A DNA stretch of 64,000 bases from an uncultured Actinomycetota bacterium (GTDB lineage Bacteria > Actinomycetota > Actinomycetes > JAFAQI01). The stretch covers positions 32,001-96,000 of the forward strand of contig CAVYQE010000010.1 of NCBI GenBank assembly GCA_963770565.1, in the 5' to 3' direction. Made by a program: the position numbers and the translations under genes. Positions 3,076 through 19,136 of the stretch are shown one piece after another (within the stretch, counting starts at the first letter, position 1; every line of letters begins with the position of its first letter). Below the pieces are notes generated by a model. It worked only from the letters and a program-made list of their open reading frames with translations, did not search any database and was not told the DNA's origin.

Positions 3076-3948
3076 TTAGCGACTGACCAGGGTCGGTGCG
3101 CTGGTGTCGACCGGGAGGGCGAGTCGCTGGACCCTGACCAGGCGCCCGGTCGCGTCGTACGGCCCGAACGTCTCGCCCTGGTAGCTGATCGTGTACGTCG
3201 CGCCCCACCGGGTGCGCAGGGTCAGCCGGGCGATGCCGCCGTGTAGGTAGGAGTGCGCCAGGGGAGTGCTGGCGCTCAGCCAACCCGAGGTGGAGCCGTC
3301 GCCCCAGTGCCAGTCGGCAACGGTGGCGTCGAGGGTGATCGTCTCGGTGACCTCGCCGCTGCCGAACGGCACCGGGGTCAGCGAACCTGGGACGCTCGCG
3401 GTAAAGAAGGTGGCGAGGCCGGCCAGGGTCGCGCCGGACGGGCTGGTCGAGATGTCGAGGTCGGGCGGCGTCACGTCCTTCAGGTAGCGGCGGACGTCTC
3501 CGAACGCCTTGGTGCCGACCGGGACCGGTTGTTGGGGACCGCCGAGACAGACCGTGCCGACGACCCGGTCGGCGACCGCGTCCGTGCTGAGGTAGATCTT
3601 GTAGAGCAGTTGCCCCTTCCTACAGTTGCCCGTCGTGCTTGCCCCGGTGCACGCGTTGATGCTGGTCGGGTCGCCCGGACTCGCAGAGGCACACGCCAGC
3701 ATCAGCGTCCACGAGCAGTCGCCGCACGCTTGCTGGGTGCCGGAGCGCGCGGCCAGGTCGAGCACCCACGGAACACCACGGACGGCGAGCAACCCGTGGA
3801 ACTCGCCGGCGTTCTGGTTCGCGCCGACACCGCACGCGGTGGTGCTGAAGGTGGTGCAGTGACCAGGCGTCGCGGCATGGGCGAAGCCGGGAGCGAGCAC
3901 GGTCAGCGTGACCGCGAGTGCTGCGAACAACCCGAGCAAGCGCGTCAT
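3076..3948 (-). CDS. Secreted Cys-rich protein with C-terminal PKD-like domain
   Basis: Signal peptide MTRLLGLFAALAV...AHA; several Cys; WHWGDGS...HSY...W.ATY pattern typical of PKD-like domains. Confidence 0.7.
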   Translation of the reverse strand: MTRLLGLFAALAVTLTVLAPGFAHAATPGHCTTFSTTACGVGANQNAGEFHGLLAVRGVPWVLDLAARSGTQQACGDCSWTLMLACASASPGDPTSINACTGASTTGNCRKGQLLYKIYLSTDAVADRVVGTVCLGGPQQPVPVGTKAFGDVRRYLKDVTPPDLDISTSPSGATLAGLATFFTASVPGSLTPVPFGSGEVTETITLDATVADWHWGDGSTSGWLSASTPLAHSYLHGGIARLTLRTRWGATYTISYQGETFGPYDATGRLVRVQRLALPVDTSAPTLVSR

Positions 3949-4517
3949 CAGACGGCCGTGATCCGAGCGATCAGCCACCGACTGCCGCCACGCACAAGTA
4001 GGAAGTCACGATGAACTCGCTTGGCCGGAGGTGCATGGCTCAGGGTCTGATTGTTGGGGCCGACCATGCCGCCCTTGGCGGCGTTGAACAGCACCAACAC
4101 ATCCACGACGCCGGGGCCATCCACGCTTGGCGTGTATTTGATGACGTGGACGCGGTCGATGTAGCGCTCGCCGCGACTGCGCGCGTACCTGACCGACTTG
4201 GCCTGGATCTGGCAGGGGCACTTGGGCGTGAAGATCGCGCTCCAACCCTCGGCGTTCATGTCGTCGTGCAGGTTGTTGAGGACCGAGTAGTAGCGCTTCA
4301 CCACACTCGTGGCGGCCGCAAGCTCACCAGCTTGGCCGGCGACCAGGGGAGGAGCCCCGGGACCAGGCGTCGGGACCGCGATCGAAGCGGTGGGCGGCGT
4401 ATGGTGTGGCGCAAGGCTTTGGGGCCCTGACGCCGCCTCACCCGCGCAGCCGCTGAGCGCAGCGACGAGCACAGCAGCGAGGGCAAAGCCTTTCCCCGAT
4501 CCGGTCAGCACCGGCAC
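3948..4517 (-). CDS. Putative lipoprotein (DUF6318-like / NTF2-like)
   Basis: Lipobox LSGC after hydrophobic stretch, Pro-rich linker, RYYSVLN...CPC motif; stop overlaps start of the downstream secreted gene; start uncertain. Confidence 0.6.
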   Translation of the reverse strand: MPVLTGSGKGFALAAVLVAALSGCAGEAASGPQSLAPHHTPPTASIAVPTPGPGAPPLVAGQAGELAAATSVVKRYYSVLNNLHDDMNAEGWSAIFTPKCPCQIQAKSVRYARSRGERYIDRVHVIKYTPSVDGPGVVDVLVLFNAAKGGMVGPNNQTLSHAPPAKRVHRDFLLVRGGSRWLIARITAV

Positions 4518-4611
4518 AACGTAACGAGGGCGCGACGATCGCGGCGGACGTTGTCCACAGGCCTCGAAATGCCCCCCGAACGGCGTAACGGGCGGTTGTG
4601 CCGGATGAGCG

Positions 4612-4638
4612 TTCAAGCCTGAGCGGAACGTGGCCGAT
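4612..4638 (+). promoter_or_regulatory. sigma28/FliA/WhiG-like promoter upstream of mglB-like gene
   Basis: TTCAAG-N15-GCCGAT. Confidence 0.7.
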
Positions 4639-4692
4639 GTGGAACGTGAGGCCCCCCACCCTTGGGACAGGCCGTGAGACGAGGTGTCCGTG

Positions 4693-5301
4693 ATGTCCGA
4701 CTCTGCTAACCGCTCCCAGCGGCTGGATCGAGCGATCGCCGACCTGCTGGCGCAGGTGCCTGAGATTGAGGCCGCAGCGGTGGTTTCCTTCGACGGTCTG
4801 CCGATGGCGAGTGCGCTTCCGGCGACGATGGATGAGGACCGGGTCGCCGCGATGAGCGCCGCCCTGCTGAGCCTCGGGGAGCGAGCGGCTGAAGGGCTCG
4901 GCCGCGGTTCGCTCAACCAGGTCTACATCGAGGGCGACCACGGCACTGTCTTCCTGGTGTCGGCCGAGGACGAGGCCGTGTTGGTCGCGGTCGCGGCCCG
5001 CGGCGCCAAGGTCGGCATGATGCTTTACGAGGTACGCCGGTCCGCTCAGACCGTCGCCAATGTGCTGCGCGCCGAGGTCGAGCCGGAGCTGCTGGCCGAG
5101 CCGGCTGCCGAGTTGCCCCCGCTGCAAGCCGTCGCCCCGCCGCTGCCCGAGCCGGAGCCCGCGCCCGTTGCGGACGTTGCCCCGGCAATGGACGCCGAGC
5201 CGAGCGCACCCTACGCCCCGATGTCCTCGGACCCGGCGTGGGTATCACACCTTCCGAACGGATCTGCGGTCGCCGCCAGCGACCCGCAGCCCTGGTCCTG
5301 A
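4693..5301 (+). CDS. Roadblock/LC7 domain protein (MglB-like GAP) with Pro/Glu-rich tail
   Basis: AAAVVSFDGLPMAS...DRVAAMSAALLSLGERAA..LGRG.LNQVYIEG; upstream of small GTPase; alternative start 4684. Confidence 0.9.
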   Translation: MSDSANRSQRLDRAIADLLAQVPEIEAAAVVSFDGLPMASALPATMDEDRVAAMSAALLSLGERAAEGLGRGSLNQVYIEGDHGTVFLVSAEDEAVLVAVAARGAKVGMMLYEVRRSAQTVANVLRAEVEPELLAEPAAELPPLQAVAPPLPEPEPAPVADVAPAMDAEPSAPYAPMSSDPAWVSHLPNGSAVAASDPQPWS

Positions 5302-5337
5302 CCCCCCTAACCACCCGACGCCCACCCGAGGTCTGCC

Positions 5338-6453
5338 GTGAGACTTGAAGGCTCGCTAGACGCCTTCAGCCTGCCGGATATCTTCTCGCTGCTCAGCATG
5401 ACGAAGAAGACCGGCGGACTGCATCTTCGCCGTTCCGGCGCGCACGGCGTCGTCTGGCTCGGCGACGGGTTGATCAGTGGCGGCGCCTCGGACCTGTCGA
5501 GGCTGGCGTTGGGTCGTCGGCTGGCCGGGTGCGGCCATGTCTCTGACGAACAGCTCCGCGAGGCGGTCGAGCTGGTCGCCGGGTCTACCGACGTCGGCCT
5601 TGCCCGCGCGCTTCGCGACGCGAGCGCCATCGATGAGGGCGAGTTGCACACGGTGGTCTGCGAGCACATCGTGGACACCGTCTTCGACCTGATGCGCTGG
5701 ACCGAGGGCGTCTTCGAGTTCGTCATCGACGAGGCCAACGTCGACGACGTCGGGGTGACCCTCGAGGTCGAGGAGGTCGTGACCGACGCGCGGCACCGGC
5801 TGGACACCTGGGCGACGATCGATGAGGGACTCGCCTCGCTGGACACCGTGTTGTCGCTGTCGCTCAACCCGGATCTCGACCCGACCCTGCAGCGCGACGA
5901 GTGGGCACTGCTGGCGCTCATCGACGGGCGGCGCACCATCAGCGACGTCGTCAACCTCTGCGGCCGCGGTGAGTACGCCGTCGTCGTGGCGCTCAACGAG
6001 CTGGTCACGAAGGGCTTGGTCCACACCGAGGAGTCCGAAGGCGTCGCGGCCCTGCAACAGCGGCAAGATCTGGTCGGTTCACTCGAGACCGAGGTCGCAC
6101 CGGCAACGTCGATCCTTGCCGACGTCCTCAGCGACAACTCGGCGGTCGGCGAGACCGATGTCGACGCCGAGTCCCTCCTGGTCCCGGCCGAGCCGGAGGT
6201 CGCGACTGAGGCCGACGACGACGAGGACAGCGACGACAACGAGCAGGTCGCGGACATCTCCACCCTGCCGCGCGCGACGTCCCACGACGATGCCGACGGC
6301 GGCCTTCACTCGCACGACCACCCCGAGCCGCTCGCCGCGGCCGTGTCCGGCGGTGGAATGGTCACCGCCGTACCGTCCGGGGCGATCGAACGCGACCCGA
6401 GCGTCAACAAGAGCTTGCTGCTGCGCTTGATCGCCGGCGTGAGAGGGCTGTAG
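5338..6453 (+). CDS. DUF4388 (PATAN-like) domain protein with HTH-like region and acidic linker
   Basis: LEGSLDAFSLPDIFSLLSMTKKTGGL...G.I..A, W.EG.FEF, EWALLALIDGRRTISD. Confidence 0.85.
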   Translation: MRLEGSLDAFSLPDIFSLLSMTKKTGGLHLRRSGAHGVVWLGDGLISGGASDLSRLALGRRLAGCGHVSDEQLREAVELVAGSTDVGLARALRDASAIDEGELHTVVCEHIVDTVFDLMRWTEGVFEFVIDEANVDDVGVTLEVEEVVTDARHRLDTWATIDEGLASLDTVLSLSLNPDLDPTLQRDEWALLALIDGRRTISDVVNLCGRGEYAVVVALNELVTKGLVHTEESEGVAALQQRQDLVGSLETEVAPATSILADVLSDNSAVGETDVDAESLLVPAEPEVATEADDDEDSDDNEQVADISTLPRATSHDDADGGLHSHDHPEPLAAAVSGGGMVTAVPSGAIERDPSVNKSLLLRLIAGVRGL

Positions 6454-6455
6454 TC

Positions 6456-7034
6456 ATGGCGACCAGGACACGTCGGCGGACCGCAGGCACTGCGGTGAAG
6501 ATCGTGGTGACCGGCCCGTTCGCGGCCGGCAAGACCACCCTGATCCGCACGATCAGCGAGATCACGGTCCTCTCGACCGAGCGCAGCATCAGCGACGAGA
6601 CCCGCGCCCGCAAGACCGACACCACGGTCGCGATGGACTTCGGCCGGATCACGATCGACCGAGACCTCGTGCTGTACCTGTTCGGCACCCCGGGGCAGGA
6701 CCGGTTCGACTTCATGTGGGAGATCCTCGGCGAGGGCATGCTCGGATACGTCCTGCTCGTTGATTCGTCGCGAGCCGACTCGCTCGACGAGGCGGTCAGT
6801 ATCCGCGAGGCCTTCCGCAAGATGGCGCGGGTTCCGTTCGTAATCGGACTGAACCGGGCCGAGGGCCTCGACGAAGCCGAAGAGGCGACCGTCCGCAGCC
6901 GGCTCGACCTCGAGGACGACGTCCCCGTGGTGCCCTGCGACGTCACCGATCGCGAATCGGTGAAGGCGGTGCTGCTCGCCCTGCTGTACGCCGTTGTCGA
7001 CTCGCTGGACGCCGCTGCCGCCGTGCAGGCCTAG
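6456..7034 (+). CDS. MglA/CvnD-like small Ras-like GTPase (ATP_bind_1 family)
   Basis: G1 GPFAAGKTT, G2 TTVAMDFG, G3 FGTPGQDRF. Confidence 0.92.
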   Translation: MATRTRRRTAGTAVKIVVTGPFAAGKTTLIRTISEITVLSTERSISDETRARKTDTTVAMDFGRITIDRDLVLYLFGTPGQDRFDFMWEILGEGMLGYVLLVDSSRADSLDEAVSIREAFRKMARVPFVIGLNRAEGLDEAEEATVRSRLDLEDDVPVVPCDVTDRESVKAVLLALLYAVVDSLDAAAAVQA

Positions 7035-7049
7035 CGCCCGCCGCGGAGG

Positions 7050-7505
7050 GTGAGCGTGTTCGGCCGGCGCAAGAAGCCCGCCAAGCTCGGCATGCGACGT
7101 CGGACGTCGTTCGCCTGGTCCAACGTTGCTTTCCCGCCGCCGGCGCCGGCCGGCCACTCCGTCGAGGCGCCAGCTCCGGACCCGGTCGCTGAGTCGGCAC
7201 CGGAGCCGATTGCCTCCACACCGCCGCCTGCGCCGGACGCGACAGCCGCGCCGATGCCGCCGCCGGCCGAGCCGGTGGCCCCGAACCCGGCCCCGAGGCC
7301 GATGAGGCCAACCGTCGCCGCGGCCGGCCAGAAGCTCGCGTCGGAGCCGGTCGCCGAGGTGCTGCCGCCTGCGCCCGCCGGGTCACGTCCGACTGTGCGG
7401 CTCGGCTTCGTCGACGGGACTTCGTACGAACTCGCCGACTCTTCCGGTGAGTCAAAGGCGCTTAGACGAGTTGCCGCCCAGTTGATCGACGGGCCCTCGG
7501 CCTGA
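7050..7505 (+). CDS. Hypothetical Pro/Ala-rich protein, fourth gene of the Mgl-like operon
   Basis: GGAGG RBS before GTG, 15 bp after GTPase stop; basic N-terminus, Pro-rich linker, compact C-terminal VRLGFVDGTSYEL segment. Confidence 0.65.
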   Translation: MSVFGRRKKPAKLGMRRRTSFAWSNVAFPPPAPAGHSVEAPAPDPVAESAPEPIASTPPPAPDATAAPMPPPAEPVAPNPAPRPMRPTVAAAGQKLASEPVAEVLPPAPAGSRPTVRLGFVDGTSYELADSSGESKALRRVAAQLIDGPSA

Positions 7506-7515
7506 CCGGGTTCTG

Positions 7516-8286
7516 TCAGGGTCGACGTACCACCCACCGCACATAGTCGTAGTCGTGGTCCGGGCGTATGACCCGCTCGACGACGCGCAGCCCGTGGTTG
7601 GCGAACATGATTTCCGCTCGCTTCGCCGGCACCGCGAGCATCGAGATTCCGGACAGTCCGGTCCGATGGAGCCGCTCAGGGCGGACGCCGAGCGATCGAA
7701 GCACCCGGTAGAGCTGAAAGCGAGGCTGGAGGCGCGCCCGAAGCTGGTGGGCTGACTCCGGCAGCTCGATGACGGCCGGGGCGCCTGCTGCAAGTGAACT
7801 CGCGATGATGCCGATCGCGTTGTCGATCGCGGTTAGGGTCGGAAGATGCTGCAGCACCAGTAGCGACATCGCGAAGTCGTGCTCGCCCGCCTCGGCGAGC
7901 TCGGACGGAGCCGCTGTAGTGATGTTGGAGATCCTGGCCGTCGCGGCACGTGCCTGCAGCGTCGCCAGCATCCCGGGGGAGATGTCGACCGACGTCACGT
8001 GCTCGAAACGGGCGGCGAGCGCGAATGACAGCCGACCGGTGCCGGCGCCGTAGTCGACCGCACGCCCGTAGTTCACTGGCGGCCCGGCGGCAAGGCACTC
8101 ATCGACCGCTTGGACGCCGCTGGCGTAGAAGTCCGTGAGGTCGGTATCCCAGCCGCCATGGCGGCGGGACCTCTCGGTGAGCACAGCCCAGTCGGGGTCC
8201 TCGGCACCGAGCGACCTCCACACCTCTTGCTGTCGACCCTGCCGGTCGAGGTGTGAGCCTGGGTCTTCACCGGCGTTCGCCGTCAC
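7516..8286 (-). CDS. Class I SAM-dependent methyltransferase (glycan-locus associated)
   Basis: VDYGAGTGRL motif I, VDISPGML, LVLQHLP. Confidence 0.88.
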   Translation of the reverse strand: MTANAGEDPGSHLDRQGRQQEVWRSLGAEDPDWAVLTERSRRHGGWDTDLTDFYASGVQAVDECLAAGPPVNYGRAVDYGAGTGRLSFALAARFEHVTSVDISPGMLATLQARAATARISNITTAAPSELAEAGEHDFAMSLLVLQHLPTLTAIDNAIGIIASSLAAGAPAVIELPESAHQLRARLQPRFQLYRVLRSLGVRPERLHRTGLSGISMLAVPAKRAEIMFANHGLRVVERVIRPDHDYDYVRWVVRRP

Positions 8287-8296
8287 GATTTGCTCC

Positions 8297-9121
8297 TCAT
8301 GTGACCCGCCTGCCGATCAGTCGACGAGCGGCCAGACCGGTGCGGACGGCAGCCACCGCAAGAGGACCGCGCACCGGACCGAGCCGACGCCGGCAGAGTC
8401 GCTCGAACGCACCTATCCACCGCGCACCGCCTCCGGAAGCCCCTTGATCATGCCTGACGACGATCGACGAGACGAGCCGAAAGCGAGCCCCCTGGGCGGA
8501 GGCGGCGGTGCCCCACGCGACGTCCTCGGCGTAGATGAGCTCGTCTTCCGGGATCGGACCGAAGCGCTCGAAGACATCGGCCGCGAGCACGGGGCATGCC
8601 ATGCACAGCCACTGCACGCCGCCGGCGCGGCGGGCCTGGGCGCGGGTCAGGAACACTCCTCGAAGCCCCGGCAACAGATGGCTCAGGAACAGGAAGTAGC
8701 CGGCCACTGACCGCAAGGTGAGTGGACCACCGCCCGGACCGATCTGGAGGCGCCCTTCGGAGCCCGCCAGGAGCGGTGCGATTCCGTCAAGATCTGAGAT
8801 CAGCGCTTCGGTCAGCCGAGTCAGCTGGCTCACGTCGAGGTGTACGTCGGGGTTTAAAAGGAGCCATGGCCGGCGCGGTGAGTCGACCGTTGCGACAGCA
8901 CGGTTGACGGCAGCTGCGAATCCGACGTTGCGATCGATCAACAATGCCTCTGCACGATGAGATGCGCATACCAGCGACACACCGGCGGGGTCGTCACCGT
9001 TGTCGACGACGATTACATGATGACCGGCCAGCAGCCCGCTGTCGAGCTGGCGTTCGATGTTGGGCAGGCTGTGGTAGTTCACGAGCACGACGGTGAGACC
9101 ACCGTGCGAATCGGTGGTCAT
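8297..9121 (-). CDS. Glycosyltransferase family 2 (WbbL/rhamnosyltransferase-like)
   Basis: VVLVNY, VVDNG, NVGFAAAVN, LLLNPD, YAEDVAW. Confidence 0.9.
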   Translation of the reverse strand: MTTDSHGGLTVVLVNYHSLPNIERQLDSGLLAGHHVIVVDNGDDPAGVSLVCASHRAEALLIDRNVGFAAAVNRAVATVDSPRRPWLLLNPDVHLDVSQLTRLTEALISDLDGIAPLLAGSEGRLQIGPGGGPLTLRSVAGYFLFLSHLLPGLRGVFLTRAQARRAGGVQWLCMACPVLAADVFERFGPIPEDELIYAEDVAWGTAASAQGARFRLVSSIVVRHDQGASGGGARWIGAFERLCRRRLGPVRGPLAVAAVRTGLAARRLIGRRVT

Positions 9122-9144
9122 AGTTGCGTCCGGTTCGCACACTG

Positions 9145-10269
9145 CTAGGCGATCCGTTTGCGCGTCGTAGCGGCCCGGGGTTGCGCAGCTACCTGTCTCA
9201 AAGCCTTGAGGACGGTCGATGCGCTCGCGGTCCAACTCAACGCACGCGAGCGTTGCCGGCCACGGGAGCTGAGGTCCATGCGCGCGTTGGTGTTGGTCAG
9301 CAGCTCGGTGAGCGCGGCCGACCAGGAACCGACGTCGAGTGGTGCGAGGATCACTCCCGCGTCGCCGACGACCTCGGGCAGACTGCCGGTGTTGCTTGCC
9401 ACAACCGGGACGCCGGCGTACATCGCCTCGATCGCCGGGATGCCGAAACCTTCGAACAATGATGGAAAGGCGAGGACATCAGCGTTGACGTACTCGTCGG
9501 CGAGTTGCACCTCGGAGACGTAGCCGGTGAAGGTGACCGCGTCTCCGAGCATGACGCGTAGTTCGTGCTCGATCGTTTGCCCAGGCGGCGGGACGTTGCC
9601 GACGACCCGAAGCTCGACCGAAACGCCGCTCGCCCGCATCCGCGCTACCGCGGCGCCAACCGTGACGAGGTTCTTGCGCGGCAAGACGTTGCCGACCGCG
9701 ACGACGCGACGTTCGTGGTCCGGTCGTTGGCGACGGGTCGCGGCATCGACGAACGAGCCGAGGGTTGGGTCGATTGCGTTTGGAGCAACGAGTACCTGCT
9801 CGGCTGTGAGCTCGTAGCGATCAACCAACCCGCGGCGGGTGAACTCGGATGGCACAAGCAACAAAGCTGCGTGCCGAACGCTGTGATCGATCGAGGCGCG
9901 CACTCTGATGCGAAAGCGTCGAGACAGCCAGGCGTGGCTCTGTGGGTCGAAGGGGGACAGGTCGTGGATCATGACGACACAAGGTCGTCGCGTGAGTGGC
10001 TTGGTGTACTGCACGAGCAACGCATCGGCCTTCACCTGGCGCGCTAGTCTTGGCAGATCGACCGCGAGCCGGCGTACGGCCGAGCCCGACAGCGCCAACG
10101 GAGCTCTTCCGGTTAACTCGGCGACCTCGGACCGCCCGCTCTCGCCGGTGCCAAAGAAGACGTCATCCGAGCCGGTAAGGAGGGCGAGCTCGCGGCTGAT
10201 GTTGCGCGCCCAGGTTTCGTTCCCGGTCTGATGAACGCCGATGTGATGGACATCGATGAGAAACCTCAC
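9145..10269 (-). CDS. Glycosyltransferase family 4 (MtfB-like)
   Basis: IHDL, VPSEFT, VGNVLPRKN, FPSLFEGFGIPAIEAMYAGVPV. Confidence 0.92.
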   Translation of the reverse strand: MRFLIDVHHIGVHQTGNETWARNISRELALLTGSDDVFFGTGESGRSEVAELTGRAPLALSGSAVRRLAVDLPRLARQVKADALLVQYTKPLTRRPCVVMIHDLSPFDPQSHAWLSRRFRIRVRASIDHSVRHAALLLVPSEFTRRGLVDRYELTAEQVLVAPNAIDPTLGSFVDAATRRQRPDHERRVVAVGNVLPRKNLVTVGAAVARMRASGVSVELRVVGNVPPPGQTIEHELRVMLGDAVTFTGYVSEVQLADEYVNADVLAFPSLFEGFGIPAIEAMYAGVPVVASNTGSLPEVVGDAGVILAPLDVGSWSAALTELLTNTNARMDLSSRGRQRSRALSWTASASTVLKALRQVAAQPRAATTRKRIA

Positions 10270-10475
10270 CGGCTACATCCGGTCCCACCTGTGGTCACCC
10301 CGAAACCATAACGTCCGCCACGTCGTTATCAGAGTTGTTGCGTAGGCGTGGGCGAATCCAATCCGGGTCAGAGGTCTGGACCACGCAACGCTTCCCGGAT
10401 ACACGGTCCCGACGAGGTCCGACAGTAGGTTTCAGGCGTGCACACGTTCGCGGTTCTCAGTGGTCACCACCGGAG

Positions 10476-11678
10476 GTGACTGGCTTGCGAGTGCTGGTCT
10501 TCGCGCCGTGGGTGCCGCACCCGGACATCGGCCATGCGGGCGGGCTGCTTGTGCTCGGGCACACTCGCGAGCTTGCGGCTCTCTGTGACGTGTCGCTAGT
10601 GGCGCCGACCCACGAGGGTGTGACCACCATCGAGGGCATCGACCTGGTGCCGATCGCCATCAACGTGCCGGGGCGAGGGTTGAGGCGGCGGTTGCGCTAC
10701 CTGCGCTGGCTCGCGCGAGGCCTCGGCCCAGGACCGCAGGAGTTGGATGGGCTTCGACGGTTCCTGCGATCTCCGCATGGCCGGCGACTCACCGCAGCGG
10801 CCGACGTCGTGGAAGTTCACTTCGAGGACATGTTGCCGATCCTCGACGATCTTGACCGCCGATCCCGAGTCGTCCTGTGGGCACATGACGTGGTGTCGGA
10901 GGACCTGATCGTGGCGCAGGTGAATCTGCGTTCGAGGCGGCGCCGAGTTGAGTCCCGAGTCCGGCTCGTGGGTACTCTACGAGCGGAGCGCCGACTTCTT
11001 CCTCAATGCGACGCTGCCGTCGTCTTCAAAGCTGCGGATCAAGACTCGTTGCGTTCCTTGGGGTTCACGGGTCCACTGCGCGTGGCCAGCCCGCGAATCT
11101 TCCCATCGACACCAGATGTTGAAACCCGTCCGCTGTCTGCAGAGCCGATCGTGGTGATCGTGGCGGCCTTCGACCGCGCGGTGAACCGCGAGGGCTTGAT
11201 GTGGTTCGTGAGTCGAGTTTGGCCAGGGGTACGAGACCGGGTGCCAACGGCGCGGCTCGTTGTCGTTGGAGCGCACGCACCGAGCGTGACCGTTGAAGGG
11301 GTCAAGGTCGTCGGCTTCGTGCCCGATCTGTCGTCGGTGTACGCCGAAGCCGATGTGGCCGTCGTTCCGGCACGCGGCGGCGCCGGGCTGAAATTCACGG
11401 TCGCGCAGGCGCTGACAAATGGCGTACCTGTGGTGAGCACGACCAGTGGCGCGCGCGGCTATCCGAGTCCCGACGACGCTGTCTTTCTGGTCCGCCGTGA
11501 CGACCCTGATGGTTTCGCCGCGGCCGTCGTCGAGATCTTGAACGCCCCGGATCGAGGGCGCGCCGCAGGTGCGGCCGGCCGCGCATGGTGGCGGGCTGAG
11601 GACGCGTCTCGGGCCGGCGCCGGCGCCCTTGTCGAGTGGTACTCCGATCTGGCACGGAACGGCGGCGCCGATGGATAG
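10476..11678 (+). CDS. Glycosyltransferase family 4
   Basis: NREGLMWFV..VWP, VVGFVPDL, VVP...GAGLKFTVAQAL..GVPVVSTT.GA.G; start uncertain. Confidence 0.85.
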   Translation: MTGLRVLVFAPWVPHPDIGHAGGLLVLGHTRELAALCDVSLVAPTHEGVTTIEGIDLVPIAINVPGRGLRRRLRYLRWLARGLGPGPQELDGLRRFLRSPHGRRLTAAADVVEVHFEDMLPILDDLDRRSRVVLWAHDVVSEDLIVAQVNLRSRRRRVESRVRLVGTLRAERRLLPQCDAAVVFKAADQDSLRSLGFTGPLRVASPRIFPSTPDVETRPLSAEPIVVIVAAFDRAVNREGLMWFVSRVWPGVRDRVPTARLVVVGAHAPSVTVEGVKVVGFVPDLSSVYAEADVAVVPARGGAGLKFTVAQALTNGVPVVSTTSGARGYPSPDDAVFLVRRDDPDGFAAAVVEILNAPDRGRAAGAAGRAWWRAEDASRAGAGALVEWYSDLARNGGADG

Positions 11679-13053
11679 CCTGGCCGCCACGTGGGGCCGA
11701 GTGCGCAACTCCGGGCCGCTAGTCGTACTGCGGCTGTTGGCCCTCGGGCTCACGCTGGGTCTGTCCGTCGCGCTCGCGCGTCGTGTCGGTGCGGGGCCGT
11801 ACGGCTCATACGCGGCCGGCGCAGCGCTGACTGCGGTGGTTTTCGCGCCCGGCCCATTCGGCGCCGACCAGATGTACCTCACCGGCATGCTCAGCTTCCG
11901 CCGGGCGCTTCGCCGCGCATTGGCGGCAGGCCTCGTGTTGGCCGTGCTGACCTGCGGTGTTGCCTTGGCTTGGCCTTCGCTACCCCGAACCGCCCGGGTG
12001 TGCGCCGTCCTGTTGGCCGTTGCCGCTGCCGCTCAGACCATCTTGGCGATCTGGTTTACCGAGCCGGTTCGGCGCTTGGACTTCGCTCGCCGGGCCAGGC
12101 GGGAGCTTGCCCTCCTGATTGCCACCGTCATCGCCGGAATCGCGGCTCTGCTCGTGAGCCGGTCGGCTGAGTTGTTCGCGACAAGCGCGGTGGTGGCCAG
12201 CGTCTGCCTGTTGACGTTCGCCTTGGCCCGGCACGGGCGAGACCATCGCAGTGGCGCCCACCAGGATGAGCCTCTCCTCCGAAGCGAGTCTCGAAGCTCC
12301 TCGATCCGACATGGGTTGGCCTACTCCGCATCGAGTGTGTTCTACACGGCGTATTTCCAAGTGGACGTGGTGATCCTCGCGGCGCTGCGCGGATCGGAGG
12401 CCGCCGGACAGTATCGGGTCGCGGTGAATGCCCTGTCCGCCTTCGTTGTCATCGCGGTGGTGATGAACAACGACATCCTGCGCCCCATCCTGATCCGACG
12501 ATCGGGAGCAGAATTCGACCGAGCGTCTCGTCGTGGCCTACGGGTAGCCCTCCTCGTCGGGCTGGCTTCCGCGCTCGTTCTCGCCGTTGCCGGGCGTTGG
12601 CTCATCCCAGTGGTCTACGGCAGCGCCTATCAATCCGCAGTCCCTCTCGTCACGATTCTCGCCGCCGGGCTGCTTGCTCACTTCTACAACAGCTGGGCGG
12701 GAAACGCGTTGATTGCCGCAGGCGCGATCTCGCGCGTGGTGGCCATCCAGACCGCGATGCTGGCGGTCAACCTGGTCGCCAACCTGGTCGCGTTGCGCAG
12801 TCACGGTGCGACCGCGTGCGCCGTCATCACCGTCGTCACCGAGGTGGTGGGAGCGGTGGGCTATCTCACCGCGGCCCGATTCGGTGCCCTCTCGCGCCTA
12901 GTCGGGCGTCGCGACGACCTGAAGGCGTTTGCCCGCCTTGGCGATGGAGGCGAGGTAGTCAGCGGTGCGAGCGCCGACAGTGGTGAGGGCCCCGGGCCGA
13001 TAGTTGTCGAAACCGACGTCATCACGCCCGGCTTCGGTGAGATCGGGCCCTGA
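11671..13053 (+). CDS. Wzx-type oligosaccharide flippase (MOP family)
   Basis: Many hydrophobic segments; LARRVGAGPYGSY, YFQVDVVIL....G.EAAGQYRVA, YGSAY..A. Confidence 0.85.
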   Translation: MDSLAATWGRVRNSGPLVVLRLLALGLTLGLSVALARRVGAGPYGSYAAGAALTAVVFAPGPFGADQMYLTGMLSFRRALRRALAAGLVLAVLTCGVALAWPSLPRTARVCAVLLAVAAAAQTILAIWFTEPVRRLDFARRARRELALLIATVIAGIAALLVSRSAELFATSAVVASVCLLTFALARHGRDHRSGAHQDEPLLRSESRSSSIRHGLAYSASSVFYTAYFQVDVVILAALRGSEAAGQYRVAVNALSAFVVIAVVMNNDILRPILIRRSGAEFDRASRRGLRVALLVGLASALVLAVAGRWLIPVVYGSAYQSAVPLVTILAAGLLAHFYNSWAGNALIAAGAISRVVAIQTAMLAVNLVANLVALRSHGATACAVITVVTEVVGAVGYLTAARFGALSRLVGRRDDLKAFARLGDGGEVVSGASADSGEGPGPIVVETDVITPGFGEIGP

Positions 13054-13827
13054 CCGACCCGGCGTGCGCATGCCGAGCGACTGTACGACGCTGCGGCGAG
13101 TGGGCACCGGCTCGCCAAAGGTCCGGACCCGCGTGACCTGGAAACCGGCTACCTCGAGCAAGCGGTTGAGGGTGGACGGGGTGAACTGCCAGAGATGCTG
13201 GCTTGGCCGCAGATCTACCCAACCTGATCCGGCGGCCCGACGGTCCCAGGACCCGAAGTTCGGCACCTCGATCACCAGCCGGCCGTCAGAGGGGAGCAGG
13301 CCTCGTAAAACGTGCAGAAAACCGATCGGATCCTCGAGGTGCTCGACAACGTGGTGGAGCGTGACGACTGCGAACGGTGCAAGTCGACTGGCTTCGTCCA
13401 GGCTGGAAACCGACGAGATCGACTTGCCGGCCGCGATCTCGCGCGCAGCATCCGAGATCTCAACGCCAAGGACGTTCCATCCTCGGCCTCGCGCGCGGGC
13501 CAGGAATGCGCCGGTCGCCGACCCGACGTCAAGCAGGCGATCGCCGGGGGTAGGGACGCCGAGCATCCGGAGCTCCGGCTCGAAGCGGGCGTCGTCATAA
13601 CGTGCGGCCAGTCCCGAGTCGAAGTCGCGGTGCTGCGGGTCGCCGTCCGACCCGGTGAAGTAGTCCAGGTCGTATGTCTCGGACGGGTCTCCACAGTTGA
13701 TGACAAGCCCACATGTGCAACGGCGGAATGTCGATACCAGAGGCTTCCAGCTGCCACTCACGGCCTCGCCGCATACTGGGCACCGAAGAACGCGGGTTGT
13801 CACCCGTTCGGCGTCGGCACGGCTCAC
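12898..13827 (-). CDS. Class I SAM-dependent methyltransferase with N-terminal Zn-binding motif
   Basis: CPVCG...CTCG, LLDVGSATGAFL, GVEIS, HVVEHLEDP, IEVPN, HLWQFTP. Confidence 0.9.
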   Translation of the reverse strand: MSRADAERVTTRVLRCPVCGEAVSGSWKPLVSTFRRCTCGLVINCGDPSETYDLDYFTGSDGDPQHRDFDSGLAARYDDARFEPELRMLGVPTPGDRLLDVGSATGAFLARARGRGWNVLGVEISDAAREIAAGKSISSVSSLDEASRLAPFAVVTLHHVVEHLEDPIGFLHVLRGLLPSDGRLVIEVPNFGSWDRRAAGSGWVDLRPSQHLWQFTPSTLNRLLEVAGFQVTRVRTFGEPVPTRRSVVQSLGMRTPGRSGPDLTEAGRDDVGFDNYRPGALTTVGARTADYLASIAKAGKRLQVVATPD

Positions 13828-13889
13828 CCGTTCACTTTAGAGGCTCGCTAATCCCGCATTATGGAACGGCGCGACAGTACGTTTTATAC

Positions 13890-15791
13890 GTGCGTGCGAT
13901 CTTTGCCTTCCGTCGGCGCACCGACTTCTTCCTCGCCGTCATCGACATCGGGCTGGGTCTCCTCGCCGGGCTGGTCGCCTACTCGCTTCGCTTCGGCGGG
14001 ACCACGGTGCCCGGTTTCTACGTCGTCCGCTACCAGGCGATGACGGTCGGCCTCGCAGTCGGTTCGGTGCTCGCCGGCCGCGCGGCCGGTCTCTACCGGC
14101 GAGGGGTGCTGCGGGCGGGGGAGTCGAACGTCGAGCCGGCGGTGGAGTCGGCCCTGGCCGTCGGCCTCGCGGTGTTCCTGGTCAACCAGTTCAACTTCCA
14201 CGGCGCCCTCTCGCGGTCGTGGATCGGCCTGGTCACCCTCGCCCTCCTGCTGTTCGGAATCGGATCGCGCGCGCTGATCCGCTCCGGGCGCCGGCTGCTG
14301 GTCCCGTTCGGGATCGCCCTCGAGCGTTACGCCGTGGTCGGTGACGACCGCGCGGGTCGTCGTCTGTACGACGACCTCACCCGGGCCGCCGGCACTCCGT
14401 TCAGAGTGGTGACGCTGCTGCCGCGGGAGCTGTCACCGGCGGAGCTGTCGGCCCGCGCCAGCGAGCTCCGGCTCGAAGGGCTGATCCTGACCGCCGACAC
14501 GGACCCGGTCGTGGCCGGCAAGCTGGCGGGCGCGCTGTCCGGAGCGGGCATCGACGTCTTGCTGGCACCCGGCCTGTCCGGACTGGAGCTGCGGGTGGCG
14601 AGCGTCGCGATGTTGCACGGTGTCCCGCTGCTGCGCGCGTCCGGACTCGCGCCCCGGTATCGCGCGATCCGCACCCGGACCCGCGGCCGCGGCCACGGCG
14701 TGGCGATCCTCGGCACCCGCGGAATCCCGGCGAACTATGGCGGCTTCGAGACCTTCGCCGAGCGACTGTCGCTCTACCTGGTCGCGGCCGGGATCCCGGT
14801 TACGGTCTACTGCCGCAAGCATCACGCCACGGCCGGTACCGAGTGGCATGGCGTGCGCCTGGTCACGTTGCCGACCATCCGGTCGAAGTATCTCGACACG
14901 GTCGTGCACACCTTTCTCTCCACCGTGCACCTGGTGACCCGCACCCGAATCCGCAACGTGATGTTGTGCAACGCGGCCAACGCGCCGGCCCTGCCGATCC
15001 TTCGGCTCACCGGGCGGCGGGTGGTGCTGAACGTCGACGGGCTCGAATGGCGCCGCGGCAAGTGGGGCATCGCGGGCCGGGCGTGGTACCGGCTCGGGGA
15101 GTGGCTGTCGGTGCGACTGGCCAGCGTGCTCGTGACGGACGCCGAGGAGGTCCGGACCTACTACCACGTGCGCCATGACACGGATTCGGTGATGGTTCCG
15201 TACGGCGCCGATCCAGTGCCCAGGGGACTGCTGCTGCCGCCCGACGTGGGTGTACAGCCGGACGGCTACGCCCTCTACGTCGCCCGGTGGGAGCGGGAGA
15301 ACAATCCCGACCTGGTCGCTCGGGCGCACGCCGGCTCACACAGCACCCGCCAGCTGGTGATGCTCGGCCACGCGGCGTACGACGCCGAGCTCGAGCGCGA
15401 GGTCCGGGCCGCGGCGGCCCCGACCGCGGTGCTGCCGGGCTCGGTGTACGGCGAGACCTACACCGCGCTGCAGAGCAACGCCCGCTGCTACATCCATGCG
15501 ACCGAGGTCGGCGGGACCCACCCCGCCCTGATCGAGGCGATGGGCGCTCAGAACCTCTGCCTGGTCCTCGACACCCCCGAAAACCGCGAGGTGGCCGGAC
15601 CGGACGCGTGGTACTTCGCCGACGAGGCCGAGTTGCGCGACCTGCTCGACGAGGTCGACCGGCTCGACCAGGCCCAGCTTGCCGAGTTGCGGGAGGCGTC
15701 CGGGCAGCGGGCGGCCGAGCGCTTCTCCTGGACCCAGGTGGGCAGCACCTATCTCGCGCTGCTGACCGGGGAGGGTTCGACGACCGGCTGA
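13890..15791 (+). CDS. Fusion: WcaJ/WbaP-like N-terminal membrane + Rossmann-like region joined to DUF1972/GT4 (WchF-like) glycosyltransferase
   Basis: Four TM helices, RYAVVGD, GVPLLR linker, then VAILGTRGIPANYGGFETFAERL, NVDGLEWRRGKW, EVGGTHPALIEAMG; start uncertain. Confidence 0.82.
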   Translation: MRAIFAFRRRTDFFLAVIDIGLGLLAGLVAYSLRFGGTTVPGFYVVRYQAMTVGLAVGSVLAGRAAGLYRRGVLRAGESNVEPAVESALAVGLAVFLVNQFNFHGALSRSWIGLVTLALLLFGIGSRALIRSGRRLLVPFGIALERYAVVGDDRAGRRLYDDLTRAAGTPFRVVTLLPRELSPAELSARASELRLEGLILTADTDPVVAGKLAGALSGAGIDVLLAPGLSGLELRVASVAMLHGVPLLRASGLAPRYRAIRTRTRGRGHGVAILGTRGIPANYGGFETFAERLSLYLVAAGIPVTVYCRKHHATAGTEWHGVRLVTLPTIRSKYLDTVVHTFLSTVHLVTRTRIRNVMLCNAANAPALPILRLTGRRVVLNVDGLEWRRGKWGIAGRAWYRLGEWLSVRLASVLVTDAEEVRTYYHVRHDTDSVMVPYGADPVPRGLLLPPDVGVQPDGYALYVARWERENNPDLVARAHAGSHSTRQLVMLGHAAYDAELEREVRAAAAPTAVLPGSVYGETYTALQSNARCYIHATEVGGTHPALIEAMGAQNLCLVLDTPENREVAGPDAWYFADEAELRDLLDEVDRLDQAQLAELREASGQRAAERFSWTQVGSTYLALLTGEGSTTG

Positions 15792-15793
15792 GG

Positions 15794-15820
15794 GTCAAGC
15801 ATCGCTGCGATCGCGCCGAT
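15794..15820 (+). promoter_or_regulatory. sigma28/FliA/WhiG-like promoter upstream of O-antigen ligase-like gene/pilB
   Basis: GTCAAG-N15-GCCGAT ending 8 bp before GTG 15829 (possibly leaderless transcript). Confidence 0.65.
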
Positions 15821-15828
15821 GCCACAGC

Positions 15829-17346
15829 GTGACCCAAGCCGCGGTCACGGCGTCGCCCACGACCGCTGTGACCCCTTCCGCGCGCGCGCCCGAGCCGCCG
15901 TCGAGCCCGCCTGCCCGGCTGCGTGGGATCACCCTGCTTCAAGCCAACGCTGAGACCGCTGCAGTGCTCGCCGTCTGCGCCTGGTGGCTGTTGCTCGCAC
16001 CCCGGCTCGAAGGCGGCCGCGGAGCGGGCGCGGTGACCGGGGGAGCGATCGTCACCGGCCTGGCCACGCTCGTCATCCGGCCGCACCGGTTCGCTCCGCG
16101 CGGCGCGATCTGGCTGGCGCTCGCGGTCAGCGCCGCTGCGCTCGGCGTCGCGGTGCTGGCCCCCACCGGATGGGCCGGTGCACCTGCCGCGGCCAGCTAC
16201 GTCTGCGTGAGCTGGACCGTGATCGTCGTCGCGGCGGCCGCGAGGTCCAACCCCAAGCTCGCGAACCTGATCGTGCTCATGGTCGTCGCCGGCGTCCTGG
16301 TCGAGGTCGCCGAGTCGTGGCTGGCCTGGTGGGGCGGCTCCGATGCCAGCGTGCCGATCTCCGGCACCTTCTACTGGTACGACCCGTTCGCCGCCTTCAT
16401 GCTTGCCGGCACGGTCATCGGGTTCTCCCTGTGGCTGTGGCGCTCGGGGCCGGTCGCGGCGTTCGGCCTGCTCGGCGCGGCGCTGGGCACCATCGGCCTG
16501 GTCTACTCGACCAGCCGCGCTGCCGGAGCTTGCTTCGGGATCGCCCTCCTGGCCGTCGGCGTCGTCCACCTGGCCACCCGCGGCGTCGCCGGGGTGAGAC
16601 GCCTGGTCGTCGCCCTCGCGGCGGTCGGTCTCGCGGTCTGGGGCATCGCCGGGCCGCCGTTCTTTGCGCATCGGTCGCTGCCGTTCGCGGGCACGAGCGG
16701 ACGAGCCAGCGGCCAGTCGCTGAGCCAGAACGGCGGTTATCGGCTCGACTTCTGGCACGAGGCGATCGGGGTCTTCCACCGACACCCGTTGGTCGGGGGC
16801 GGGTTCCACTCGCTCGCGTCGGCGGCGCAGGGTCACGTGCCGCCGGGCTGGCCACTCTCGCCGCTGGCCCACAACGGATATCTGCAGGCGCTGTCCGACG
16901 GCGGCCTGCTTCTCGGCGTCCCGTTCCTGCTCGCGGTCGCCATCCTCGGCTGGTACGTCGTACGAGGCTTGGTCACCGCAGTTCGCCGGCGCGAGCTCAC
17001 CTCCGCCGGGTTCGTCGTCCTGTTGTGCCTTGGTGCCCTCCTGGTGCACTCGGCGGTCGACTTCGACTGGTCGTACGCGGCCGACTTCGAGGTCGTGGCC
17101 GTCCTGGCCGGCTTGGTCGCGGCGATGCACTGGTCGCGGGACGAGCCTCAGACGCGGCCCGCGCCATCCCGGCTGGTCGCGGGCGCGGTGCTCGTCGGCG
17201 TCGTCCTCACCGGGGTGGCGGCGGTCGCCGCCTGGCCCGGAGACTTCAAGCAGTCGTTGCCCCTTGGGCACTCAGCAGTGCGGTCCCTTTGGCACTCCGC
17301 AGCGCAGGCGCCTGCGCACCCCACGAGTAGCGGGAGTTCACAGTGA
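15829..17346 (+). CDS. O-antigen ligase family (Wzy_C) membrane protein; candidate pilin O-oligosaccharyltransferase
   Basis: Polytopic; STSRAA, RLDFWHEA..VF..HPLVGGG, AHNGYLQALSDGGLL, HSAVDFDW; GTGA overlap with pilB start. Confidence 0.85.
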   Translation: MTQAAVTASPTTAVTPSARAPEPPSSPPARLRGITLLQANAETAAVLAVCAWWLLLAPRLEGGRGAGAVTGGAIVTGLATLVIRPHRFAPRGAIWLALAVSAAALGVAVLAPTGWAGAPAAASYVCVSWTVIVVAAAARSNPKLANLIVLMVVAGVLVEVAESWLAWWGGSDASVPISGTFYWYDPFAAFMLAGTVIGFSLWLWRSGPVAAFGLLGAALGTIGLVYSTSRAAGACFGIALLAVGVVHLATRGVAGVRRLVVALAAVGLAVWGIAGPPFFAHRSLPFAGTSGRASGQSLSQNGGYRLDFWHEAIGVFHRHPLVGGGFHSLASAAQGHVPPGWPLSPLAHNGYLQALSDGGLLLGVPFLLAVAILGWYVVRGLVTAVRRRELTSAGFVVLLCLGALLVHSAVDFDWSYAADFEVVAVLAGLVAAMHWSRDEPQTRPAPSRLVAGAVLVGVVLTGVAAVAAWPGDFKQSLPLGHSAVRSLWHSAAQAPAHPTSSGSSQ

Positions 17347-19015
17347 AGCAACTCGGCGACATCCTGCTCGACGACGGCCTCGTCACCCAGGAGCAGCTGC
17401 ACTGCTGCTTACGACGAGCAGCAGCGGGTAGGCCGCAGCCTCGGCCGGGTGCTGGTCGACCGTGGCGTGCTCACCGAGAGCCAGCTCGTCGCCGCGCTCG
17501 CCCAGCAGATCGGCCTGCGGTTCGTCGACCTGTCCGACTTCCCGGTCGACGGCTCAGCGCTGTCGACCGTGCCGCCGATCGTGTGCCGTCGCTACGTCGC
17601 CCTTCCGATCGGCTTCGAGGACGGCCGGCTGCTGGTCGCGATGGCGGACCCGGCGAACGTCTTCGCCCTCGACGACATCCGCTCGCATCACCGGCATCGA
17701 GGTCAAGCCGGTCGTCGCGACCAAGGCCGATGTCAGCGCGGCGATCGACCGCTACCACCGCGCCGACTCCGACCTCGACGACCTCACGATGGCGCTCGAC
17801 GACGAGGAAGACCCGGCGCTCGACAACGTCAAGGAGGTCGTCGAGGACGCGCCGATCGTCAAGTTCGTCAACCTGCTGATCACCCAGGCGATCCAGGACC
17901 GGGCCTCCGACATCCACATCGAGCCGACCGAGCGCGACCTGCGGGTCCGGTTCCGCATCGACGGCGTGCTGCACGAGATCATGCGCTCGCCGCGCAACGA
18001 TCCAGTCCGGCGTCATCCAGCCGGCTGAAGATCATGGCCGACATCAACATCGCCGAGCGCCGGATCCCGCAGGACGGCCGGCTGTCGGTGACCGCCAGCG
18101 GGAAGAAGATCGACCTGCGGGTGGCGACCCTGCCGACCGTGTGGGGCGAGAAGGTCGTCATGCGAATCCTGGACAACTCGACCGCGATGCTGAACCTCTC
18201 CGACCTGGGCTTCAGCGAGGGCAACTTCGAGCGTTACTCGGTGAGCTTCATCGAAGCCGTACGGGATGATCCTGGTGACCGGCCCGACCGGTTCGGGAAA
18301 GTCGACCACGCTGTACGCGACGCTGAACATCGTCAGCCGGCCCGAGATCAACGTCATCACGGTCGAGGACCCGGTCGAGTACCGGCATGCCGGGCATCAA
18401 CCAGGTGCAGGCGAACCCCAAGGCCGGCCTGACCTTCGCCACCGCGCTGCGCTCGATCCTGCGGTCCGACCCCGACGTCGTCCTGATCGGTGAGATCCGC
18501 GACCACGAGACCGCGCAGATCGCGATCGAAGCGGCTCTCACCGGTCACCTCGTGCTGTCCACGCTTGCACACCAACGACGCGCCGGCGGCGATCACCCGG
18601 CTGATCGAGATGGGCATCGAGCCCTTCCTGGTCGGGTCCGCGCTCGACTGCGTGCTGGCCCAGCGGCTCGCCCGCCGGCTGTGCGACAAGTGCAAGGAGG
18701 CCTACACGGCCGAGCCGTCGAGTGCTGCGCTCGGCCGCATTCCCGTGGGAGGACGGCGAACCGCTGCCGACGCTGTACCGCGCGGTCGGCTGCTCGGCCT
18801 GCTCCAAGACCGGCTACCGCGGCCGGCTCGCCCTGCACGAGGTCATGGCGGTCGTCCGAGGAGATCGAGCGGCTGGCGGTCGACGCGCGCGTCGGCGTTC
18901 GAGATCGGCCGGGTCGCCAGTCGAGCAGGGCATGCTCACGCTTCGGCTCGACGGCATGGACAAGGTTCGGGCCGGGGTGACCTCAATCGAGGAGATCTTG
19001 CGCGTCGTGGTGTGA
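17343..19015 (+). CDS. pilB: Type IV pilus assembly ATPase PilB with N-terminal MshEN domain (11 apparent +1 frameshifts in this assembly)
   Basis: Fragments across frames: [74 protein letters not shown], CxxC motifs; removing 11 bases gives 554 codons. Confidence 0.9.
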
Positions 19016-19047
19016 CGGCGACCCGCCATTCGGGTGGGCCGAGGTTG

Positions 19048-19074: not shown

Positions 19075-19136
19075 GCAGACGTGTGGCGGGACAGGTCTCG
19101 CTGCTCGCGGACGACCGCAGATGAGGGGACACGCAC

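Follow-up and report, generated by a model that had tools for sequence, protein, structure and literature searches.

Here, we describe a four-gene module, encoding a Roadblock protein, a PATAN-domain adaptor, a small GTPase of the MglA family and a short fourth protein, in the genome of an uncultured Actinomycetota bacterium. The module lies on a 64,000-nt stretch of DNA (contig CAVYQE010000010.1, positions 32,001 to 96,000), which is called the window below. Its GTPase belongs to a family that is single-copy and tied to type IV pilus (T4P) genes by conserved gene order. The four genes of this family would constitute a G-protein switch built into T4P clusters, and we consider this switch probably pilus-controlling. 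The window is high in GC (about 0.65-0.74), the host genome comprises 4.43 Mb on 11 contigs and is 94.9% complete, and the named relatives of the locus are metagenome-assembled genomes of Frankiaceae, Frankiales and Mycobacteriales. In the window sequence, the four plus-strand genes stand in one row with intergenic gaps of 36, 2 and 15 nt (Table 1). An initial annotation had proposed a Roadblock-PATAN-GTPase operon at positions 4693-7034; these three genes are indeed co-directional there and match the Pfam profiles PF03259, PF14332 and PF03029, but the proposed range leaves out the fourth gene at 7050-7505.

The link to T4P is most apparent in other Actinomycetota. A gene for a PilB-like ATPase lies 3' of the GTPase gene in all 20 wider loci of the single-copy class (GC 0.34-0.72) and in all of five further loci, i.e., in 25/25. 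The usual order after the PilB-like gene is a second ATPase, then PilC, pilins, PilD, PilM and PilN, and the second ATPase of other clusters is 57-71% identical to the one encoded at 19125-20726 of the window. Upstream of the GTPase, one or two Roadblock copies and a PATAN gene are present in 19/20 loci, the remaining one (L051) being cut by a contig end; the five further loci have PATAN in 5/5 and a Roadblock match in 4/5 (none in L076). Four loci even show pilB overlapping the stop codon of the GTPase gene by 4 nt. Of the 13 named loci, L006 and L009, the closest relatives, carry the ATPase gene immediately behind the module. T2SSE genes flank L011, L012 and L013, and in L002, L005 and L010, as in the window, the module is followed by glycosyltransferase genes; L001, L003, L004, L007 and L008 are too short to show what follows. 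Across the family, the module very probably regulates the pilus. A literature search on type IV pili, Actinobacteria and Roadblock returned no description of such a module.

The GTPase itself carries the P-loop TGPFAAGKTT, G2 TT, G3 GTPGQ and, at nt 6849-6863, G4 NRAE. Its best solved relative by sequence is Myxococcus xanthus MglA (E 7.8e-5), and NCBIfam gave only a small_GTP domain match below cut-off. In a survey of 401 sampled Actinomycetota genomes, 130 of which had a match at E <= 1e-10, the matches split into a single-copy class (49-63% identity to the window GTPase) and a multi-copy class (44-51% identity, up to eight scored per genome). Matches at E <= 1.1e-46 occurred in 65/400 genomes (58/393 without seven unpublished genomes), all in the category 'same phylum' and none in 'same class'. 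Nine of the multi-copy matches listed, from five genomes, have a DUF742 match directly upstream (genomes G054 and G317 contribute three each, G069, G361 and G382 a single one) and are therefore CvnD, the GTPase of the conservons; a CvnC profile built from DUF742 loci recovered CvnC in 14/15 such loci (none in L065). According to the motif table, both classes share G2 TT, G3 GTPGQ and a 'CDARDRESVK' G5, and they differ in the P-loop, which reads TGPFxAGKTT in the pilus-linked class and GGFGVGKTT in CvnD.

Phylogeny likewise sets the window GTPase apart from the kinase-linked CvnD, as the initial annotation had anticipated. In a first IQ-TREE analysis of 52 GTPases (the frameshifted L013 was excluded from all trees), the 15 CvnD-like sequences form one side of a branch with support 100/99, and the window falls on the other side, within a clade of 10 Frankiales-like sequences (100/97). 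A second, maximum-likelihood tree used the Thermus, Deinococcus and Ralstonia GTPases as outgroups, with the long-branch sequences L078_5528 and L076_5001 removed. Here, CvnD again is a clade (100/100), nested among pilus-linked sequences (96/82, 98/91), and the PATAN-linked GTPases of Thermus and Deinococcus lie outside the actinobacterial set. Nesting of CvnD inside the pilus-linked set is not established, because an approximately unbiased (AU) test, with L078_5528 and L076_5001 excluded, did not reject a single clade of all pilus-linked GTPases (p 0.18). By these sequence phylogenies, the window GTPase is outside the CvnD clade.

The unusual G4 motif highlighted in the initial annotation, LNRAE instead of NKxD, was confirmed at residues 132-136, where it aligns with NKRD of MglA. 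Many members of the pilus-linked class have NKxD or NKxx as G4, others TRxx or (T/S)HLD, and the form NR(A/S)(E/D/Q/G) is confined to the window's clade of 10, in which the G5 Arg is also replaced. NRAE is, as judged from this alignment, a real but local clade variant in a family with a loose G4, and it does not indicate an altered specificity. CvnD also has an unusual G4 of its own and has been reported as a GTPase (PMC4316618, section 15).

The middle protein is, by profile comparison, a fusion of PATAN with a CvnC-like half consisting of winged helix, linker and terminal helix. Its PF14332 match scores 72.3 bits against a cut-off of 25, and 39/39 orthologues match as well. From N- to C-terminus, the protein comprises the PATAN domain, a winged helix, an acidic, disordered linker and a terminal helix; in an AlphaFold2 (AF2) model built from 27 sequences (mean predicted local distance difference test score, pLDDT, 78), residues 1-250 exceed a pLDDT of 90, 256-352 are disordered and 358-370 helical. 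When the C-terminal half was aligned with 14 CvnC proteins using hhalign, the winged helix matched over 69 columns (Prob 81.7, E 1.1e-5) and, collinear with it, the last 17 residues matched the CvnC C-terminus (E 0.0056); the N-terminal half gave nothing. CvnC proteins end in LLERVLxGLRxL, and 34/38 orthologous PATAN proteins end in a helix ..RDxxVxKxLLLRLIxGVKGL. The DUF742 profile (PF05331) did not match the adaptor in Pfam even at E <= 10, and the N-terminal CvnC motif VRPYxxTxGRT is absent from it. The initial annotation had put a PATAN-like gene in the place of DUF742: the PATAN assignment holds, but PATAN is joined to a CvnC-like winged helix and terminal helix, so that this is no simple replacement.

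Orthologous adaptors vary between 351 and 1465 aa owing to the variable linker. In 32/38 loci, the distance between PATAN gene and GTPase gene is -14 to +48 nt, the remaining six being truncated, frameshifted or containing N. The winged helix also gave a MarR_2 match below its cut-off (E 2e-4). In structure comparison it was closest to GATOR1 and SEA-complex subunits (Z 9.5 to 8fw5_B, and 9.1), which we regard as a common fold and not as a functional link; MarR/RRE-type winged helices followed at Z 6-7. Six loci (L047, L054, L057, L079, L080 and L083) carry a shikimate-dehydrogenase-like gene between GTPase and pilB, together with a long adaptor and two Roadblock genes; intact adaptors of this group measure 924-1465 aa and share a linker motif ..LE(R/Q)EL(A/L)ELTGA...

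The PATAN domain contains a four-helix insertion that resembles the N-terminus of PilB-like ATPases. The hhalign comparison of this insertion (residues 52-120) with the N-termini of 42 cluster PilB-like ATPases gave a match of Prob 98.6 and E 1.3e-15 over 54 columns, which covers the first ~56 residues of the ATPases and both of their tandem repeats; reversed and CvnC controls gave nothing. PATAN modelled alone reached a pLDDT of 90.8, and the top five of 48,161 chains compared with it had Z values of 5.2-3.9, which are low in absolute terms. They were MshE with cyclic di-GMP (c-di-GMP; Z 5.2, root-mean-square deviation 2.2 over 58 aligned residues), two entries for Thermus PilF, Xanthomonas PilB-N and XpsE-N. 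All five match model residues ~50-113, the second PilF entry (6f8l_G) being listed with 38-139. Foldseek found no match to the adaptor and PATAN models at E <= 0.001 and only local matches, to MshE and PilB-N (probability 0.94-0.97, ~52-54 columns); for the beta part of PATAN no solved fold was found (best Z 3.4). The Pfam MshEN model (PF05157) matched 0/39 PATAN N-halves at E <= 1, which is not evidence against homology because the model covers residues 57-141 of the cluster PilBs and not the N-terminal tandem motifs. On these alignments and fold comparisons, the insertion is homologous to the c-di-GMP-binding N-terminal module of PilB/MshE, with motif residues degenerate in the window; the 'degenerate MshEN repeat' of the initial annotation is thus real. 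Our literature search found no equation of MshEN with PATAN/DUF4388.

Structure prediction points to a contact between adaptor and GTPase. A complex of the GTPase, two Roadblock cores and adaptor residues 330-371, folded from its own alignments and as four chains, unlike the calibration, scored 0.78 (runs 0.78, 0.77 and 0.78) versus 0.00 for the best of three controls; the score mark is reached by 116/157 solved complexes and 2/215 mismatched pairs. Between runs, 77% or more of the contacts are shared, with a partner pLDDT of at least 62. In the prediction, adaptor helix 349-371 contacts GTPase residues 12, 14, 33, 65-73, 92-97, 122-126 and 166-184, which, as read from the sequence, would belong to helix alpha5 and the beta2-beta3 hairpin. 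Residues 65-73 and 166-184 coincide with the pocket of MglA that is occupied by the C-terminal (Ct) helix of MglB, which promotes nucleotide exchange, as described by Baranwal et al. (PMC6785124).

In the model that follows, we infer each binding step and the control of the pilus, next to the observed domain make-up, homologies, gene order and tree position. The GTPase, of the MglA-family GTPGQ type without an arginine finger, would cycle between GTP and GDP, with the Roadblock dimer as its MglB-like partner (a GTPase-activating protein, GAP). The adaptor would be held on the GTPase through its terminal helix in the predicted alpha5/beta2-beta3 pocket, and its PATAN domain might serve as output or input face and contact PilB or PilC. 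In other lineages, the PATAN-borne copy of the PilB four-helix module, degenerate in the window, could bind c-di-GMP. The fourth protein would be an accessory within the switch.

The Roadblock protein has its core in residues 1-125, followed by a Pro/Ala-rich tail; an Asp34-Gly35 pair is invariant among 34 orthologues, and NCBIfam gave only a far sub-threshold MglB match. The disordered tail (window 5029-5298) ends in conserved Trp-containing short motifs ..DPAWxS..LPNGS..PxxWS. The fourth protein has a basic N-terminus, followed by a Pro-rich linker and, C-terminally, a conserved mini-domain (..VRLGFVDGTSYEL..), and an open reading frame (ORF) with the same C-terminal motif lies 3' of the GTPase in 15/36 loci. 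It begins with a conserved (S/T)W..A.PP motif (window 7050-7140). The Trp motifs of the Roadblock tail and this N-terminal motif may be docking peptides.

The module resembles several known systems. With the conservons (AGPS; CvnA-CvnB-CvnC-CvnD; Mfp system) it shares the order of Roadblock gene, gene for a CvnC-like protein with winged helix and terminal helix, and GTPase gene, and the GTPases, 43-48% identical, have G2 TT, G3 GTPGQ and the 'DAR' region of G5 (wider family) in common. In contrast to conservons, PATAN is fused ahead of the CvnC-like half, the P-loop and G4 differ (GGFGVGKTT and NxFD in CvnD versus TGPFxAGKTT and non-NxFD here), and the module is single-copy and pilus-linked. 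The initial annotation's absence of a conservon kinase agrees with our searches: DUF742 had 0 matches in the 94.9%-complete genome, and Pfam found no kinase domain, as of CvnA, among the ORFs scanned in 1-17 kb of the window, CvnA itself not having been searched genome-wide. Genome-wide profile matches comprised one for Roadblock and, for PF03029, one above the family cut-off plus a weak one. As there is no DUF742 match, no further Roadblock match and a single above-cut-off PF03029 match, the genome is without a conservon as far as tested, and the module does not correspond to a conservon, which has four core genes including the one for the histidine-kinase-like protein CvnA. In the accessible part of a 2026 AGPS paper, PATAN is not mentioned.

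MglA controls T4P via adaptors. Like MglA/MglB of M. xanthus and Thermus thermophilus, the module pairs a Ras-like GTPase with a Roadblock partner, and a helix is predicted in the alpha5/beta2-beta3 pocket used by the MglB Ct-helix. However, the similarity to MglA is distant, the window GTPase has TT and not RT, lacking the intrinsic Arg finger, the helix comes from a third protein instead of Roadblock and is hydrophobic/basic instead of D/E-rich, and the genes of the window family adjoin pil genes. The MglA family is nevertheless recognizable in GPFAAGKT, TT and GTPGQ and in the Roadblock gene two genes upstream. Assignment to MglA Group 1, defined by an intrinsic Arg beside the G2 Thr and G3 TVPGQ (PMC4316618, section 15), is at odds with DTTV and GTPGQ in the window, and assignment to Group 2 (CvnD) with the tree position, with G4 NRAE instead of NxFD and with the lack of DUF742.

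Also comparable is MglA Group 5 with MglB and PATAN neighbours, in which a PATAN gene stands directly upstream of a GTPGQ-type GTPase, with Roadblock nearby. That MglB and MglA homologues occasionally stand beside PATAN genes was reportedly noted by Makarova in 2006. Wuichet and Sogaard-Andersen 2014 (PMC4316618) also mention such occasional PATAN neighbours and, in the group descriptions of that paper, define Group 5 by a canonical NKxD G4 with GTPGQ, sometimes with PATAN neighbours; in our family the PATAN neighbour is present, and G4 is NRAE in the window but NKxD in some orthologues. We saw Group 5-like loci in Thermus brockianus (pTB1) and Deinococcus proteolyticus (pDEIPR01). Unlike the window family, the Thermus/Deinococcus loci are not beside pil genes, and the Thermus PATAN is without the long insertion. 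By eye, the proteins directly upstream of the GTPase in T. brockianus, D. proteolyticus and Ralstonia have a winged-helix-like stretch and a terminal amphipathic helix. In the pTB1 locus (L085), the gene order is PATAN-GTPase-protoglobin-hypothetical-Roadblock-protoglobin. EAL and HD-GYP genes come next and a diguanylate cyclase/phosphodiesterase gene is close by, which places this PATAN-linked GTPase set among genes for c-di-GMP turnover and haem sensing.

The PATAN domain is also shared with the PatA-type PATAN-receiver (PATAN-REC) regulators of cyanobacteria (PixG, PixE, TaxP1), which bind PilB1 and PilC in Synechocystis according to Han et al. (bioRxiv 10.1101/2021.06.11.447907), who also note PATAN-GspE_N fusions. 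No REC match was found in the window adaptor, unlike PatA-type proteins, and the input would be a GTPase and not phosphorylation. With the MshEN receptors (Vibrio cholerae MshE, PDB 5HTL; Thermus PilF) the insertion shares the four-helix module and two tandem 24-residue repeats; it differs in being embedded in PATAN, in a spacer of more than five residues and in the loss of key Arg, Gly and Gln positions.

Several observations weigh against a pilus-controlling switch, above all in the window itself. The putative contact between PATAN and PilB, which the initial annotation had put as a direct coupling to the pilus motor, is drawn by analogy with the cyanobacterial PATAN regulators, and the score of the predicted complex may partly reflect likeness to the solved MglA-MglB Ct-helix complex (6IZW). 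In the host genome the module is its own operon, ~10.3 kb from pilB and partly across opposite-strand genes; T2SSE of the window pilB is spread over six pieces in three frames, and pilC is split between several frames, with TGA stops. In the window, any link to the pilus would be indirect, because a ~10-kb cluster intervenes and pilB and pilC read as frameshifted. Neither the window nor its 10 nearest relatives match even a relaxed MshEN motif (0/11). Finally, purifying selection is seen on the module genes (dN/dS, the ratio of nonsynonymous to synonymous substitution rates, 0.13-0.74 for the three genes measured; GTPase 0.13-0.17, Roadblock 0.23-0.28, adaptor with linker 0.30-0.74, each versus four relatives), but dN/dS compares species and is no proof of function in the window's lineage. 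The window's wiring of the module to the pilus is loosened, and the window is not the best specimen of the family, coming from an uncultured organism, with the module apart from the pil genes and pilB and pilC possibly broken.

The frameshifts of pilB and pilC may mark real pseudogenes or a local consensus error. A tblastn search with the intact 553/554-aa PilB of L006 and L009 matched across at least six switches, most pieces being 75-91% identical. Relatives' contigs lack individual bases at, or close to, the positions of the switches: 17686, 17999/18016/18017, 18565, 20550/20552, 20698, 21040 and 21162/21166. The sites are not homopolymers, and neighbouring genes as well as aroB and pyrB are intact. 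Extra single bases at all of these sites, in otherwise well-conserved genes, accord with consensus error no less than with decay. No public run contained more than 14% of the sampled words of 17300-22100.

An alternative hypothesis is that the module was rewired in the window's lineage from the pilus to, e.g., the adjoining polysaccharide cluster or development. This would accord with the glycosyltransferase genes that follow the GTPase in the window, L002, L005 and L010, with rapZ-yvcK-whiA upstream in L002, L004 and L005 (yvcK, 3' end, and whiA in L003), with four intact module genes next to apparently broken pilB and pilC, and with conservons, the closest studied relatives, which control development and antibiotic production (PMC4316618). 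However, the closest relatives L006 and L009 keep pilB right after the module, the pil cluster is still only ~10 kb off, the apparent frameshifts are possibly assembly errors and nothing ties PATAN or this GTPase to polysaccharide genes; we regard rewiring as rather unlikely.

It is less probable still that the module is chiefly a c-di-GMP sensor, in which the PATAN insertion binds the ligand and gates the GTPase or competes with PilB. The homology of the insertion to a c-di-GMP-binding module speaks for such a role, as do the EAL, HD-GYP and diguanylate cyclase/phosphodiesterase genes around the T. brockianus set. MshEN consists of two tandem 24-residue motifs, RLGxx(L/V/I)(L/V/I)xxG(L/V/I)(L/V/I)xxxxLxxxLxxQ, as given by Wang et al. 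(PMC5013675). Some PATAN orthologues keep RLG..Q intact, and in its relaxed form the motif is kept at least once in 16/39 and twice in 2/39 PATAN proteins, although this pattern is a weak test that only 6/42 PilB N-termini pass. In the window, the motif occurs in neither its strict nor its relaxed form, and the Arg of RLG is lost in both halves of the insertion. That the module is a decaying remnant alongside a dying pilus cluster is highly improbable, as against the at least six frame switches of pilB and the pieces of pilC stand four open module genes, intact catalytic motifs of the GTPase, its identity of 98% to L001 and 84-90% to other relatives, and its low dN/dS.

Around the pilus-linked switch that we favour, the window shows the following setting. 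On its 5' side lie rapZ, yvcK and whiA, then a minus-strand gene without family and a 139-aa ORF; directly 3' of the four genes is a methyltransferase gene (7516-8286) in opposite orientation. A consensus promoter scan of 3900-7700 gave 0 promoter-like sites, and a scan of the same range gave one terminator-like site, not above shuffles. The product of the minus-strand gene stays between whiA and the Roadblock gene in L002-L005; it was found in eight relatives, with identities of 41-87%. Contig 2 encodes a second PATAN protein, 974 aa long (G000:C2:564436-567357; L084:6436-9357), with PATAN at the N-terminus, ~830 aa without family and an insertion sequence (IS) transposase gene next to it. 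At G000:C1:296536-299498 (L088:6536-9498), with no PilC close to them, stand two adjacent genes for T2SSE ATPases, one of 390 aa, a size like that of PilT, and one of 598 aa; there are two Tad-like loci (T2SSE with two T2SSF) at ~C1:539k and C1:951k.

Table 1. Features of the module and its surroundings in the window (positions in nt of the 64,000-nt stretch)
Feature	Position	Strand	Evidence
Protein of 300 aa	3076-3978	-	no Pfam or NCBIfam family
Roadblock/LC7 (MglB/CvnB-like) protein, 202 aa	4693-5301	+	PF03259, E 1e-18
PATAN-CvnC-like adaptor, 371 aa	5338-6453	+	PF14332, E 4.7e-20, residues 4-159
Four-helix insertion in PATAN, residues 55-119	5500-5694	+	hhalign, structure comparison
Winged-helix domain, CvnC (DUF742)-like, residues 163-252	5824-6093	+	hhalign
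Terminal amphipathic helix (..RDPSVNKSLLLRLIAGVRGL), predicted GTPase docking	6394-6450	+	motif, complex prediction
Small Ras-like GTPase, MglA family, CvnD relative, 192 aa	6456-7034	+	PF03029, E 1.5e-20
Fourth gene, 151-aa protein	7050-7505	+	ORF; no Pfam family
Polysaccharide biosynthesis cluster: methyltransferase, GT2, several GT4 (glycosyltransferase families), Wzx-like flippase, Wzy-like polymerase	7516-17346	mixed	Pfam
pilB, MshEN-type assembly ATPase	17343-19012	+	at least 6 frame switches
Second PilB-like ATPase, intact, 533 aa	19125-20726	+	PF00437, E 4.4e-48
pilC (T2SSF)	20684-22065	+	pieces in several frames, TGA stops
Remaining pilus cluster, prepilin-like genes	22066-31310	+	Pfam
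PilD peptidase	28618-29409	+	Pfam
PilM	29491-30627	+	Pfam
PilN	30507-31310	+	Pfam

It is tempting to propose, if only tentatively, that a pilus-linked module of Roadblock, PATAN-CvnC and GTPase is ancestral to the conservons, which would have lost PATAN and gained the CvnA kinase, and that a winged helix with a terminal amphipathic helix, encoded immediately 5' of the GTPase, is the common partner of all GTPGQ-type MglA-family GTPases, plugging the allosteric alpha5/beta2-beta3 pocket as built-in exchange factor or tether. If true, this role would fall to CvnC in conservons, to the PATAN fusions of Actinomycetota and Deinococcota, and to the 125-aa protein of Ralstonia. The control of T4P in Gram-positive bacteria, and particularly in actinobacteria, has to our knowledge been little studied. 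As a real, conserved relative of conservons and MglAB, the module is familiar in its general outline, and its details are new. According to PMC13343842, how signals pass through conservons is still unclear. The family described here is a simpler, kinase-less conservon relative with the genes of its likely target, the pilus motor, in the immediate neighbourhood, and this neighbouring motor would offer a concrete read-out for the function of Roadblock, CvnC-like and CvnD-like GTPase proteins. Two points can be tested directly, namely how PATAN relates to PilB's c-di-GMP module and whether the adaptor helix docks, as predicted, on the MglB Ct-helix pocket.

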